Assembly (NCBI RefSeq): GCF_058153355.1
Contig: NZ_CM177019.1
Strand: one strand, 5' to 3'
DNA: 64,000 bases
The position numbers and the translations under genes are program-made. The stretch's first letter is position 1; every line of letters starts with the position of its first letter. Of this stretch, positions 4,606-44,797 are shown in pieces. Under the pieces are notes generated by a model. It was not told where the DNA came from. It was given only the letters and a program-made list of their open reading frames with translations, and ran no database searches.

Positions 4606-5001
<396 letters not shown>

Positions 5002-5138
5002 TCAAAATGTGTGATGGAAATCTCATAATTTTGTCACTTTTTGTCAACGAATCTTTTTTGTGAGAAATCGCAGGAAGAGGTGTTTTTTTACTTGAGGAAT
5101 ATCTCAAAGCGAGCCATATTTGATGAGATCGATAGTGA

Positions 5139-5918
5139 CTAAATCGCTTCAGTTTCACAACTAACAGAATAAAAAAACGGCAGCTCAAGGCTGTAATGCC
5201 AGTCAGTTAAGCAACTGACTGGCTCTTTTTCGGGGCTGTGGGGTATTTCCAGGGCCTCTCCTTTACCACTCTCGGGAAGGCCCTTTCCCTTCTTGTCGGT
5301 AATTTCACTGGTTGTCCCATACTTGCAAGATCGCGCATCAGCTCCGGTATACGTCCCGGTGAAGCGCATGGCGTCCGTCATCGACGTCAGCAGATGGCTG
5401 GTCAGTTCCATCTGGCAGACCATTTTGACCTGCGGGTAGAGCGCCGGGTTCTCGGCATGTGTCTGGCGGGGGAAGGCTGCATCGTTCTCTGGTGTATCCG
5501 GTGTGCGCCAGAACACACCATCGATGGCCAGCAGGGTCAGGCCGCACCAGTGCGGATGCGGCGTGGCGTTATGCCAGAGCTGCGCTGTTTTCGTGAACAC
5601 GCGGCGGACAGCCTCACTTCCCAGGCGCTGGCGGGCCTGAATAACGGCACTGGGGGCAACGAAGGGGCGATTGCCCGGCAGCATGATGTCCAGGCGATTC
5701 ACAATCTGGTGAAGAGGTTCTTTACGCTCAAGCGCCATGCCAACAATACACCAGACCATCATTTCGAGGGGAAGACGGCGCTTGCGTAGCGTTACAGTAC
5801 CTGATTCGGCAAGGCAACGAGAGATGAGTTCGGGGTCGAGGTAATCCCCCAGAGAAGTCAGTGGGTTACGCAGAGAATCGTAACGGGATACCAGATCAAG
5901 AGCCTGTCCAATGTGCAT
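5139..5918 (-). pseudogene. IS4-type DDE transposase, truncated and fused to flanking sequence
   Basis: N-terminus MHIGQALDLVSRYDSL... and AIDG motif typical of IS4 transposase; ORF runs through the right IS end into host DNA, C-terminal half missing. Confidence 0.7.
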
Positions 5919-6002
5919 AAAAAAATCCGGAAACGAGTGAGCGTTTCCGGATTCTTACACAGGCACTGGATCGGTCAACTGATCCTTAACTGATCGGCAT
6001 TA
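5194..6002. mobile_element. IS4-family insertion sequence, internally deleted derivative (809 bp)
   Basis: Imperfect terminal inverted repeats TAATGCC(A/G)...CAGTTAAG at both ends; identical 13-bp direct repeats CAGCTCAAGGCTG at 5181-5193 and 6003-6015. Confidence 0.75.
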
Positions 6003-6038
6003 CAGCTCAAGGCTGCCGTTTTGTGTTTCAGGTTTCTG

Positions 6039-6776
6039 TTATGTATTGCTGCTGTTTGCGGCGATGATTTTCGCTACTTTTTCAGCTTGCGCATTCATCT
6101 GCATCTGACGGTATGCATTTTCCATCAGCGGCAGCGCATCACGCGTAGCCTGGGTATCCGGATAGTCGCGCAACATGCCTTCTACGCGGTTAACGACAGC
6201 AACCCATGCACCACGTTCTGTATAATACTCGGCAACGGAGTATTCATATTTCGCCAGACGATCTTTCAGGAATACCAGACGTTTGGTGGCATCGGTGGTG
6301 TACTGACTGTTCGGATAGCCGCGCACCAGTTTGGAAAAGTCACTAAACGCAGCTCGTGCATGTTGAGGATCGCGATCGCTACGGTCAACGCCAAAGAACC
6401 CTTGCAGCGCACTGTCATCCAGCGCCATATTGGTCAGGCCACGCATGTACATGACATAATCGATATTCGGATGGGTCGGGTTAAGGCGAATAAAACGATC
6501 GATGGCAGCCTGTGCTAACGGCAAATCGGCGTTTTTATAGTAGGCGTAGATGAGATCCAGCTGCACCTGCTGCGAATACGGACCAAACGGATAGCGATTA
6601 TCTAACGCTTCCAGTTGCGTTATTGCCTGTCTCCAGTTACCGTCCTGCAGCTTTTGTTGTGCAGTCGCGTAAATTTCATTTGGCGGATTATCAGGTACTT
6701 CTTCCTTTGACCCCGAGCAACCCGCCAAAAACAGGCTTAGTGTGGCGGCTGCCACCAGATATTTCATGCGCGTCAT
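6039..6776 (-). CDS. bamD: Outer membrane protein assembly factor BamD (TPR lipoprotein)
   Basis: 245-aa ORF, lipobox LFLAGCSG, recognised as BamD/YfiO. Confidence 0.95.
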
Positions 6777-17102: not shown

Positions 17103-18401
17103 ATGGCTGAAAGTACTGTAACGGCAGACAGCAAACTGACAAGTAGTGATACTCGTCGCCGCATTTGGGCAATTGTGGGGGCCTCTTCAGGTAATTTGGT
17201 CGAGTGGTTCGATTTCTATGTCTACTCGTTCTGTTCACTCTACTTCGCCCACATCTTCTTCCCTTCCGGGAACACGACGACTCAACTACTGCAAACAGCA
17301 GGTGTTTTTGCTGCGGGATTTCTGATGCGCCCAATAGGCGGTTGGCTATTTGGCCGCATAGCCGATAAACATGGTCGCAAAAAATCGATGCTATTATCGG
17401 TGTGTATGATGTGTTTCGGCTCACTGGTTATCGCCTGTTTGCCAGGCTACGAAACAATCGGTACCTGGGCTCCGGCATTATTGCTTCTCGCTCGTTTATT
17501 CCAGGGATTATCCGTTGGCGGAGAATATGGCACCAGCGCCACCTATATGAGTGAAGTTGCCGTTGAAGGGCGCAAAGGTTTTTACGCATCATTTCAGTAT
17601 GTGACGTTGATCGGCGGGCAACTGCTAGCTCTACTGGTTGTCGTGGTTTTACAACACACCATGGAAGACGCTGCACTCAGAGAGTGGGGATGGCGTATTC
17701 CTTTCGCGTTAGGAGCTGTGTTAGCTGTTGTGGCGTTGTGGTTACGTCGTCAGTTAGATGAAACTTCACAACAAGAAACACGCGCTTTAAAAGAAGCTGG
17801 ATCTCTAAAAGGATTATGGCGCAATCGCCGTGCATTCATCATGGTTCTCGGTTTTACCGCTGCGGGCTCCCTTTGTTTCTATACCTTCACCACTTATATG
17901 CAGAAGTATCTGGTAAATACTGCGGGAATGCATGCCAACGTGGCGAGTGGCATTATGACTGCCGCATTGTTTGTATTCATGCTTATTCAACCACTTATTG
18001 GCGTGCTGTCGGATAAGATTGGTCGTCGTACCTCAATGTTATGTTTCGGTTCTCTGGCAACCATTTTTACCGTTCCTATTCTCTCAGCATTGCAGAACGT
18101 TTCTTCGCCTTATGCCGCTTTTGGTCTAGTGATGTGCGCCCTGCTGATAGTGAGTTTTTATACTTCAATCAGTGGAATACTGAAGGCTGAAATGTTCCCG
18201 GCCCAGGTTCGCGCATTAGGCGTTGGTCTGTCATATGCGGTCGCCAATGCTATATTTGGTGGTTCGGCGGAGTACGTAGCGTTGTCACTGAAATCAATAG
18301 GAATGGAAACAGCCTTCTTCTGGTATGTGACCTTGATGGCCGTGGTGGCGTTTCTGGTTTCACTAACATTGCACCGTAAAGGAAAAGGGATGCGTCTTTA
18401 G
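17103..18401 (+). CDS. kgtP: Alpha-ketoglutarate permease (MFS)
   Basis: 432-aa ORF with multiple transmembrane segments, recognised as KgtP. Confidence 0.95.
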
Positions 18402-18721
18402 TGATGCGCCAGTTGCCAGACGGTATAGCCAGTAGTTGCACCGGCGACATCCCAGGTAAAATCTTTCCAGCTCCAGCCGCTCCCCTAGGGGCGGCTATCC
18501 CAAAGTTCTTTTGACGCGCCCAGCCCAACAGAGAACATCAGCCCGAAAGTGGCACTGCGATCGCGACTCATCCCCTGATGCTGTGCATATTCATTTCCGG
18601 CGGCGGAAAGCATCGCCGAGGCGATAAAGTGTTGAGCTTTATCCTGCCCGCTCCAGCTATCGTTAGCCATATGGCTGCATCCAGAAAGTAACAATAGCGA
18701 ACAGACAAAAAGAATACGCAA
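18398..18721 (-). pseudogene. yfiM: Lipoprotein YfiM interrupted by in-frame TAG at codon 79
   Basis: [18 protein letters not shown]... stops at TAG (18485-18487); same frame stays open 28 more codons ([28 protein letters not shown]) to TAA at 18398. Confidence 0.65.
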
Positions 18722-18765
18722 AACGTGGCCTCCAAAAACAAACCCCGTACAGGACGGGGTTGTGA

Positions 18766-20121
18766 TTACAGGATGCGGCTAATTAATCGGTCGATGCGGA
18801 TACGGCGCAAACGGCGAATGAGTTTACGAACCTTCACCGGATAATCGGCAATACTTTGCAGATCGCGATAGTGCTTAACGATGGTGGTATGCTCGCGGAT
18901 CAGCTCCAGTTCTTTCTCTCGCTGTGGCGCAAGCTCCAGTTGCGGATCGTGAATCAAAATAGCGTTTTCCAGATCCAGACGCCAGGCGCGCGGGTTCAGG
19001 TTATTACCGGTGAGCAACATCCACTTATCATCAACCCACATCCCTTTCAGGTGATAGGTGTTGTCGTCATCTTTCCATAACCGAACCACTAACTGGTCAG
19101 TGTTGACGTAATACTGTAAACGGCTCAGGAAACGACGCAGATTGATCTCATAGAGATAAGGCAATGCGCCAATTATCTTGAAAGGTTCATCTTCCGGAAT
19201 GTAGAAGTCATTCGCGGTTTTATCACCAACAATAATTTCGACCTTTTTCCCTTCGCGCAGCAACTGGATGATATTGCGCACAAGGATTGCTGGCAGGTTG
19301 AAGTATGGCGTACAGATGGTTAGTTTCTGCTCGGCACAAGGCATAAGGTGGAAAATGGTCTTGTTCAACAGACTCGATTTCCCCAGACCTACCAACGGCG
19401 TTACGGAAAGCTGATCGTTGTCAGCATCGCCCTGGAAATGATAAGCGGCATCACGCAGCTCCTGGCGGAACAGACGAATATCGTTCTTGATTTCCGGGCT
19501 TTTTGGCCGATTAACATCATCCAGACGATTAACGCCGCGGCCATTCATAATATTCTGTGTAACCCATTCAAACATAATGTCTGACATCTTACGGTTACGG
19601 ATCAGATGATAACGGTCGTAGCGATATTTATCGTGCTGATGCAGGTAAACATCGTTCAGGCTGGCACCGCTATAAAGTACGCTATCGTCGATGATAAAGC
19701 CTTTAAAGTGCAGAACACCAAGGGCCTCACGGGTATTGATTGGAACGCCATAAACTGGAACATCTACGCCCGGATTTTCCTGTGCCATGCGGCAGTACCA
19801 GTCAGCGTTAGTGTTAGATGCCGCAGCGCCAATGCGTCCACGTTGTGCACGATGCCAGTCGACCAGCACCCGTACATCCAGTTCCGGACGCTGCCGTTTA
19901 GCCTCATACAACGCGTTCAGAATGCCTTTGCCACCGTCATCCTGTTCGAGATACAGGGCGACAATGCAAATGCGCTGCTTCGCGCTGGCTATTTTTTCCA
20001 GCAGCGTCTCCCGGAAGTCGGCGGGAGCGTAAAAGAAATCGACATCATCAACTGATTGAGAAATCTTGGGTAGTTGGGCAAGGTGTTGTTGATGTTTATT
20101 ACGCTTAAATTTTGACAACAT
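18766..20121 (-). CDS. pssA: CDP-diacylglycerol-serine O-phosphatidyltransferase
   Basis: ORF trimmed to [12 protein letters not shown] start (451 aa); two PLD-type HxK motifs. Confidence 0.95.
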
Positions 20122-42231: not shown

Positions 42232-42650
42232 AATAATACCGTTCTCTTTAAAAAGTAAAACCCCCGAACTGGTAAGGAACGGGGGTTTTACTTTACAACT
42301 TTAATTTTGTGCAGCACGCACCCTCAATGAGAGCGATTATGGATCAGTGTGGTTATCTTTTACAAGCAACTTGCAATCTTTAGTATAAAAACTCGAGCCT
42401 TGACGAAGAAATCGATATTGATGGAAAGATTAACGTGACCACCAATTCGTAAGTACATTAAAATTGGCTTCGTTATTGGAGATTTTGCTGTGCTTTAAAC
42501 CATATCACTGAATTCCCCCATTGAAACGAGTGGTGTCGTCAAAGCTCTGGTGTGGAGTGCAGCATGCACCCTCAATAACTCGCACGTTCAGATTTGGGGA
42601 GATGTAAGGGCTAATCTTAACGGCTGCATTCCTTGTTTAAGGAAAAACGA

Positions 42651-42731
42651 ATGACTGATTGCCGATACCTGATTAAACAGGTCATTAAAGTCGTCATTGC
42701 TGTTTTACAGCTGATCCTTCTGTTCTTGTAA
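42651..42731 (+). CDS. shoB: ShoB-like type I toxin peptide (26 aa, hydrophobic)
   Basis: Unlisted short ORF MTDCRYLIKQVIKVVIAVLQLILLFL with AAGGAA SD; matches recalled ShoB. Confidence 0.8.
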   Translation: MTDCRYLIKQVIKVVIAVLQLILLFL

Positions 42732-42924
42732 CACCAGGAAACGTACTTAAGGCGCGTCAGGTTAACCAGCCAGGCGCGCCTTTAATAATTATAAATAAAT
42801 GTCTGGGCAGATATTATATAAATTCATTTGGTGAATAATTATGCTAATGTCATCAATTAAATAAATATAATGGCGTTAAGGCTTTCCTGTAAAATAATTA
42901 ATACTCTACTTCCAGAGCAGAATA

Positions 42925-43194
<270 letters not shown>

Positions 43195-43393: not shown

Positions 43394-44797
43394 TTGAGAA
43401 TGCCGCGCACTGTAACACATAATCCGGATAGCCCCAATAATGACGATGTTTTAGCCGCATCTGAAAAATGGGACGCCTGTAAACCCCCCTATACCAGCGC
43501 ACACATGAAAATCTGTGTTGCTGCCGCCAAAATCATCCTCGCTGCTTCCGGCGTGGCTCGCCGTTCCAAATACGAAAAAGAGAACTATCTCCGTATCGAT
43601 TTCAGCAAAGCCGGTAAGGTTACATTTTACGCCGAGTTTCCAAAAAAGATGGGCCTCAAGGGTAAAAAGCTCGGCGAGTGGCCGGAGCTCGCTATCCAGC
43701 TGGCGCGCGAAAAAGCGCTAGGTATGGCTGACGGTGGCTTGCGGGCAGAGTCCGTACATGCAGCGCTGGAAATGTACCGGGATGACCTCAAAGCCAAAGT
43801 CGCCCGGCAGAAGCTGAGCCTGGACAGTTTCACAACCTACGGGGTGCGTATCGACCGGATTAAAGCAACGTTCGGCGAGCGTGAGGTGTTCAGCGACGTA
43901 ACATACAATCGGCTGGTGGAAGTGCTGGACGAGTGGATCGCCACTCGCTCGAACAATAACGCCCTGGAGTTGTTTGCCGAGCTCCGTCGGTTCTGGAAGT
44001 TCTGCGCACCTACTCTTTGCAACGGCCGCAATGTTGCCGCCAGTCTGCCAGATGATTATGTTTCCTCCCGCGTACAGAAACCCACCCCCACACGGCTTTT
44101 TACCGATATTGAATCAATCGCCCGACTCTGGCTCAATGTTGCTGCCTGCACCTCTGTACACCAGAAGAATGCTGTTCGCTTCATGATCATCACTGGTGTT
44201 CGTCCGATTAATGTCCATAACCTGCGCTGGGACTACGTTTACGAGGAGGCTGGTGAAATTGTTTATCCGGAAGGGGTTATCGGCATGCGAGGGGCTATGA
44301 AAACACAAAAGGCTTTCCGCCTGCCAATAACGCCGGAGATCCGGCGGATTATCGACGAGCAGAAAGCATGGCGTGATTCAGTTCCTGAGTGCAACAGGGA
44401 TTATGTATTTTTGCAGCCGCGTGATCCAATGCAGCCATTTTCAAAACGATCACTGGATAAGCTGGTGAAAACATACAGCCCGGACGGGGCTGTAAAAGGA
44501 ATAAAACATGATGGGACTGTTAAAGGGAAAGACGGTGCATTTAATACGATGTGCCGTAAATTCCTTAAGAGCAATGTTATTGCCTTGATGAAGGAAAGAG
44601 GCTATTCCCGATCAGACCGAAGGGAAATCAGCCTCCTTTGCCTTCACCACTCCAGCAAGTCAGATGACCCGATGGCAGAACATTACGACTTTTCTGATGA
44701 GATTTTACAGGAAGAGATTGCGTTAAAGCGCGAAGCTTTCGAGGCTCACGAGCGGAGCATACTTGCGCAGGTTGCATTGCTACGGCGGCGAGGTTAA
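43394..44797 (+). CDS. int: Phage integrase (probable tyrosine recombinase, divergent)
   Basis: 467-aa ORF at prophage edge beside AlpA-like gene; C-terminal region with conserved R, H and Y residues (..AEHYDF). Confidence 0.7.
   Translation: MRMPRTVTHNPDSPNNDDVLAASEKWDACKPPYTSAHMKICVAAAKIILAASGVARRSKYEKENYLRIDFSKAGKVTFYAEFPKKMGLKGKKLGEWPELAIQLAREKALGMADGGLRAESVHAALEMYRDDLKAKVARQKLSLDSFTTYGVRIDRIKATFGEREVFSDVTYNRLVEVLDEWIATRSNNNALELFAELRRFWKFCAPTLCNGRNVAASLPDDYVSSRVQKPTPTRLFTDIESIARLWLNVAACTSVHQKNAVRFMIITGVRPINVHNLRWDYVYEEAGEIVYPEGVIGMRGAMKTQKAFRLPITPEIRRIIDEQKAWRDSVPECNRDYVFLQPRDPMQPFSKRSLDKLVKTYSPDGAVKGIKHDGTVKGKDGAFNTMCRKFLKSNVIALMKERGYSRSDRREISLLCLHHSSKSDDPMAEHYDFSDEILQEEIALKREAFEAHERSILAQVALLRRRG

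Follow-up and report, generated by a model that had tools for sequence, protein, structure and literature searches.

What does an amber codon mean when it stands in the middle of a frame that remains open on both sides of it: a gene broken recently by mutation, a stop that the cell still decodes, a base wrongly called, or the side effect of a palindrome in whose centre it lies? The question is raised by yfiM, located on the minus strand (18721-18398) of the 64,000-nucleotide stretch of DNA analysed here (the window), where 78 sense codons are followed by a TAG, 28 open codons and a TAA. An earlier note had placed the TAG at 18485-18487, followed by 28 further codons and a TAA, inside a palindrome at 18482-18491, and all these positions proved correct when checked in the window sequence. 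Very probably, yfiM carries a recent, lineage-private single-base nonsense mutation (Glu79 amber). The features of the interrupted gene are the following.

18398-18721, minus strand: full ancestral extent of yfiM, 107 codons plus TAA, very probably a pseudogene, interrupted at codon 79; in other strains RefSeq annotates a CDS of equal 324-nt extent.
18485-18721, minus strand: translatable remainder of yfiM, from the TTG start over 78 codons to the premature TAG, with the lipobox L-S-G-C located at residues 12-15.
18485-18487, minus strand: premature amber TAG, codon 79 of yfiM, located by alignments with intact alleles and base-by-base comparison.
18398-18484, minus strand: 3′ part of yfiM, now presumably untranslated, 28 codons and the TAA, in which the GSGWSWKD block and the last predicted helix are encoded; identical to the intact allele of contig L006.

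The gene starts with the TTG at 18721-18719, the same start that RefSeq annotates in other strains, and its two stops are seen on the plus strand as CTA at 18485-18487 (TAG) and TTA at 18398-18400 (TAA). When the TAG is read through, yfiM has 107 sense-equivalent codons, which is the length of every annotated YfiM inspected. The earlier note had taken orthologues ending at the position of the TAG as what would speak against an interruption; the opposite is seen, since the orthologues run to 107 amino acids. The surrounding DNA is the Escherichia coli kgtP-yfiM-pssA-patZ-tapT-trxC neighbourhood, and yfiM lies between convergent kgtP and co-directional pssA both in the window and in each of the annotated E. 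coli records examined.

17103-18401, plus strand: kgtP, the convergent neighbour, with its TAG stop at 18399-18401; intact against the reference.
18741-18761, minus strand: terminator-like hairpin between pssA and yfiM, found by scan and unchanged by the mutation.

The kgtP TAG (18399-18401) overlaps the yfiM TAA (18398-18400) by 2 bases, the annotated extents of the two genes sharing 4 bases. Since kgtP converges on yfiM and no gene follows in the direction of yfiM, the premature stop would be without polar effect. At the other end, the T-rich tail of the hairpin runs into the Shine-Dalgarno sequence GGAGG of yfiM (18719-18735 region). Because the TTG start and the GGAGG come right after this tail, yfiM would have to be expressed by read-through of the terminator or from a promoter within pssA. 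Between strains the hairpin segment differs only in how many Ts the run contains; in strain 042, an additional T opens an upstream-extended frame of 114 amino acids in some annotations.

The origin of the stop can be traced to one base. By exact protein look-up of the repaired 107-residue protein one contig encoding it, L006 (GCA_028669485.1), was reached, and its yfiM equals that of the window at 323 of 324 bases, the sole difference being G>T at nucleotide 235. On the plus strand the mutated base is 18487, A in the window and C in the intact alleles (C>A, that is, G>T on the coding strand). Across 18387-18852 the two sequences are identical except at 18487, while overall they are about 1.2% divergent (98.8% identity over 11.9 kb). 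In alignments, the four nearest complete-genome alleles have GAG at codon 79, as does the ST95 allele (where it is preceded by CCT), and the K-12 and O157 alleles have GAA; the codon encodes Glu in every E. coli allele class examined. A G>T transversion in the first position of this codon would thus have turned GAG (Glu) into TAG on an allele that elsewhere still circulates intact. The recent single-base nonsense mutation proposed in the earlier note is therefore strongly supported, both by an intact L006 allele that differs in one base and by a sense codon in all relatives, and the comparison with yfiM alleles of other strains that it had recommended returned GAG or GAA at codon 79 throughout. 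Its example of a CAG to TAG change must be corrected, the ancestral codon being GAG and the change a G>T transversion.

An origin by Dcm deamination (CCAGG>CTAGG) was also considered, as it would explain the amber and the palindrome together, and it was rejected. A hotspot of this kind starts from CCAGG and proceeds by a C>T transition; the ancestral sequence here is CCGAGG, with codon GAG, which does not match CCWGG; as the change is moreover a transversion, deamination cannot account for the amber. G:C>T:A changes are of the class typical of 8-oxoguanine mispairing, and one single event is not attributable to a cause.

The distribution of the TAG allele was studied with a query of 31 nucleotides centred on the mutated base, such that every 28-base megablast word spans it. 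Among 5,426 complete E. coli genomes, the TAG 31-mer was found in none; as a positive control, the intact GAG 31-mer was found in 651 of them, and the intact GAA 31-mer in 3,490 complete E. coli genomes. This design sees the change only on alleles with identical 28-mers, so the reach of the search is that of the backgrounds queried: K-12-type and ST95-type backgrounds were added, and on both of them a nonsense codon 79 was found in no complete E. coli genome. An exact 32-mer scan gave no match to the TAG allele in 100,044 GTDB species-representative genomes, and an exact-pattern scan of JGI metagenome contigs gave none either. At the protein level, exact look-up in a collection of 15 billion proteins found no copy of the 78-residue product, and the repaired 107-residue protein (Glu79) is present in the same collection, in public E. 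coli records. As far as the collections searched go, the TAG allele appears to be private to the source of the window.

Few complete genomes seem to exist for the E. coli lineage from which the window comes, which may be a Shigella or a cryptic-clade strain. The closest complete genome reaches 98.3% identity over 20 kb, a stretch that includes the highly conserved rRNA operon; as no near-clonal relative was found (98.3% for the best complete genome, 98.8% for L006), the mutation is not datable against a sister strain. The yfiM allele of the window is 92.9% identical to that of K-12. In E. coli, yfiM alleles fall in two classes: the first 135 nucleotides are identical in all five alleles aligned, and over the 3′ two-thirds the class of the window (about 650 genomes) and the K-12/O157 class (about 3,500) are roughly 10% apart. 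In the adjoining gene, a tight cluster of 11 differences from L006 is found in the last 40 nucleotides of kgtP (18362-18386). The allele pattern around the convergent ends of yfiM and kgtP looks like a recombination mosaic.

Of the other explanations, the one that survives best is a sequencing or assembly error, in which the genome really has GAG and the A at plus-strand position 18487 was miscalled. We regard it as unlikely, although a wrong call would look just like what is seen, a TAG allele that is a singleton, absent from every collection searched and exactly one base away from an intact public allele, at a base flanked by a C4 run and a G4 run. The quality of the surrounding sequence points the other way. 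When the 53 annotated proteins of the corresponding region of strain 2013C-4282 were mapped to the window, 38 matched, all within 1-43,200, and the 38 genes are of full length, without gaps or frameshifts, with an internal stop in yfiM only; the interruption, unlike the palindrome, is thus not a matter of chance occurrence. A noisy assembly, unlikely with 37 other mapped genes free of stops, gaps and frameshifts in 43 kb, would be expected to show homopolymer indels first, whereas the change is a substitution. Dam and Dcm motifs are the kind that gives systematic nanopore errors, and the sequence of the site contains neither. For the same reason, that the 37 other mapped genes are intact, genome decay of the Shigella type and a poor assembly were rejected as general causes. 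The remaining 15 of the 53 reference proteins, from yfhH onward, have no match in the window because synteny ends after yfhL, at a prophage-like insertion.

Several features of the rest of the window deserve description. Synteny with the reference E. coli ends just after yfhL, and a prophage-like element occupies 43190-64000, up to the window end. Its genes include a tyrosine integrase (43394-44797), an SNF2 helicase, Rha and Bro-N regulators, a family-A DNA polymerase, a DUF2800/PD-(D/E)XK nuclease and a primase-polymerase/DUF5906 protein; no tRNA is found at its junction. At least 80% of the element is covered in only one of the 5,426 complete E. coli genomes, that of VL40 (82% covered, 96.9% identity). 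Next to it, the shoB-yfhL segment (42578-43175) has 88% identity to a reference that matches the rest at about 98% and is, judged from these identities, a locally divergent or recombined patch. The raiA-bamD spacer of about 1.1 kb (4949-6039) is 99.5% identical to a stretch of 2013C-4282 annotated in RefSeq as a frameshifted IS4-family transposase remnant.

A stop that is both real and biologically meaningful, either because loss of YfiM has been selected in the lineage or because a natural amber suppressor restores full-length YfiM, is considered very unlikely. Were selected loss true, an example of its benefit would be an envelope change reducing phage infection, as the K-12 yfiM deletion gives small lambda plaques. 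Slightly less credit still is given to decoding of the TAG as such, by an amber suppressor tRNA or by substantial read-through, with full-length YfiM still being made. The frame past the TAG is fully open, and position 79 tolerates many residues in orthologues, so that YfiM would probably be functional with Gln, Tyr, Ser or Leu inserted there. The open frame is fully explained by recency, however, since there is no other change from the intact allele: the 28 codons past the TAG would remain open merely for want of time for further mutation. The stop is found in no relative (GAG or GAA everywhere, no genome with a stop on three backgrounds), and hence the conservation among orthologues expected of programmed read-through is not seen, nor does anything else point to a programmed event. 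A single tRNA is found in the window; it lies in the rRNA spacer and is a normal tRNA-Glu with anticodon UUC. TAG terminates raiA and kgtP at their usual positions. Suppressors belong to laboratory K-12 derivatives, and the divergence from the K-12 allele given above sets the yfiM of the window apart from them. The base that follows the TAG is G, and a G in this place reportedly makes for comparatively efficient termination (Poole, Brown and Tate 1995). The suppressor-dependent gene that the earlier note had offered as its second option thus finds no support, the stop being unconserved and the only tRNA of the window being tRNA-Glu(UUC).

The palindrome around the stop, to which the earlier note had pointed, is an accidental by-product of the G>T change.

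18482-18491, without strand: perfect 10-bp palindrome CCCCTAGGGG, a new CCTAGG site and a by-product of the mutation.

The CTAG core is exactly central in CCCCTAGGGG, the TAG taking positions 5-7 of the decamer on the coding strand. Four of the five base pairs were present already in the ancestral decamer CCCCGAGGGG, since this sequence encodes the conserved Pro78 (CCC) and Gly80 (GGG). In this setting the G>T change would complete the palindrome, as TAG after a C makes CTAG, between the pre-existing CCC and GGG. In the whole window 60 perfect 10-bp palindromes were counted; a uniform model predicts 62, and first-order Markov simulations give 72 ± 7. With counts at the chance rate and four pairs present beforehand, the central position of the TAG has no significance. 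Base composition would predict about 249 copies of CTAG in the window, whereas 24 are present; of CCTAGG there are three copies, the new one in yfiM, one inside the 16S rRNA gene and one inside tRNA-Glu. That the palindrome was itself selected, as a protein-binding site, a restriction/modification target or a hairpin, with the stop as side effect, can practically be discarded, for its perfection over 10 bp, its tenfold under-represented CTAG and its being one of only three CCTAGG sites are outweighed by the chance-rate count, by the coding origin of four of its five pairs, by its presence in no other genome (complete E. coli, species representatives, JGI metagenomes) and, for the hairpin, by the fact that a five-pair stem without loop cannot be stable. 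As a curiosity, CTAGG is the context of Vsr, and T>C on either strand gives CAG (Gln) or TGG (Trp), both sense; Vsr-biased T>C correction might hence revert a CCTAGG amber to sense at an elevated rate.

Returning to the recent nonsense mutation, its consequences for the protein can be outlined from family profiles, conservation and a structural model. With NCBIfam NF008028 'YfiM family lipoprotein' (equivalog, cut-off 117) the repaired YfiM obtains 193.3 bits, over profile positions 1-105 of 106; the 78-residue remnant scores 135.7 bits, but covers just positions 1-78 of 106. Against Pfam DUF2279 (PF10043, gathering threshold 28.6) the repaired protein reaches 40.3 bits over residues 24-100, and the truncated one, with 20 bits, falls under the threshold. 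Eighteen orthologues were aligned, from Escherichia, Shigella, Salmonella, Citrobacter, Enterobacter, Klebsiella, Cronobacter, Kosakonia and other genera. In them G14 and C15 of the L-S-G-C lipobox, read from the translation at residues 12-15 and pointing to a predicted lipoprotein signal, are invariant, whereas position 79 is variable across genera (E/A/G/K/S/N), directly before the most conserved block of YfiM. The stop removes 13 of the 44 invariant residues of this alignment, the GSGWSWKD block included; those lost are G80, G82, W83, S84, W85, K86, D87, D91, A93, G94, A95, G98 and W102. An AlphaFold model based on this alignment, with a mean pLDDT of 77, shows helices at 2-18, 24-48, 53-75 and 85-105, and the stop falls in the 76-84 loop, ahead of the last predicted helix. 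A Foldseek comparison of the model with the PDB yielded generic helical-bundle noise only, all E-values being 2 or higher.

At codon 79, translation would end by normal RF1 termination, yielding a precursor of 78 residues that is devoid of helix 85-105 and of the most conserved motif. As no in-frame ATG, GTG or TTG for re-initiation is present among the codons downstream of the TAG, the C-terminal helix of YfiM cannot be made separately. A C-terminal Pro is said to slow termination and to provoke SsrA tagging (Hayes, Bose and Sauer 2002); the fragment ends ...D-S-R-P, in Pro, and may also be unstable.

YfiM has been placed in the Lipocone superfamily, a four-helix domain whose ancestor is inferred to have had a His on H2, a Glu on H3, an Asp on H4, an acidic residue ending H3 and an H4-capping Gly (Burroughs, Nicastro and Aravind 2025, bioRxiv 10.1101/2025.01.14.632903). 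If the four predicted helices correspond to H1 to H4, a mapping we infer, the invariant H31, E72, D75, D87/D91 and G98 fit this pattern. Helix 85-105 would then be H4, the predicted carrier of the catalytic Asp and the capping Gly, and would be lost by truncation. Given this loss, and going by conservation and a medium-confidence model, the truncated YfiM is most likely inactive. Loss of yfiM is tolerable, since its deletion in K-12 (Keio) is viable, the only effect being small lambda plaques (PMC2900299). All in all, the 78-residue reading frame is in all likelihood an ordinary, very recent strain-specific pseudogene of a small, dispensable envelope gene.

A five-gene neighbourhood has been described for YfiM-1, consisting of a thioredoxin, a DTW enzyme, an acyl-CoA-ligase/GNAT/ATP-grasp protein, PssA and YfiM-1 itself, with the predicted role of modifying a phosphatidylserine-derived head group (10.1101/2025.01.14.632903), and trxC-tapT-patZ-pssA-yfiM of the window is exactly this neighbourhood. 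In annotation, the appropriate label for the locus is a yfiM pseudogene with an internal stop, and neither a 78-residue lipoprotein nor a read-through gene. Beyond correct annotation the yfiM amber matters very little; it would provide a natural YfiM-null strain, or one without the last helix, on a wild background, of minor use for testing the predicted lipid-head-group role of the neighbourhood. Moreover, it illustrates how mutation can, as a mere by-product, leave a striking palindrome around a stop codon.

The kind of event described here is fully known, and only this particular allele is unrecorded in the collections searched. The gene resembles the YfiM clade of the Lipocone superfamily, of which it is a putative member, in that its repaired product passes both NF008028 and DUF2279; it departs from the clade in that the last predicted helix is missing and the four-helix core presumably could not form, the enzymatic role of the family being itself a prediction. 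With the suppressor-dependent ambers of laboratory strains and phages (supE and supF hosts) it shares an in-frame TAG, an intact downstream frame and a substitution-tolerant residue; it differs from them in having no suppressor in evidence in the window, in belonging to a non-K-12 natural lineage and in a stop that is not conserved. Amber hotspots at Dcm sites, CCAGG to CTAGG, are reportedly known from the lacI system of Coulondre and Miller and from Lieb's work on very-short-patch repair, and there too the amber is embedded in CTAGG/CCTAGG; those hotspots, however, arise from CCAGG by deamination of 5-methylcytosine, whereas the ancestor in yfiM is GAG. The closest likeness is to the strain-specific nonsense pseudogenes of non-essential E. 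coli and Shigella genes: as in these, a single substitution creates a premature stop in a gene that is otherwise intact, syntenic and conserved, whose downstream frame has not yet decayed and which is dispensable in the laboratory. In Shigella, pseudogenes form part of a genome-wide decay; the yfiM lesion is instead isolated, one broken gene of 38.
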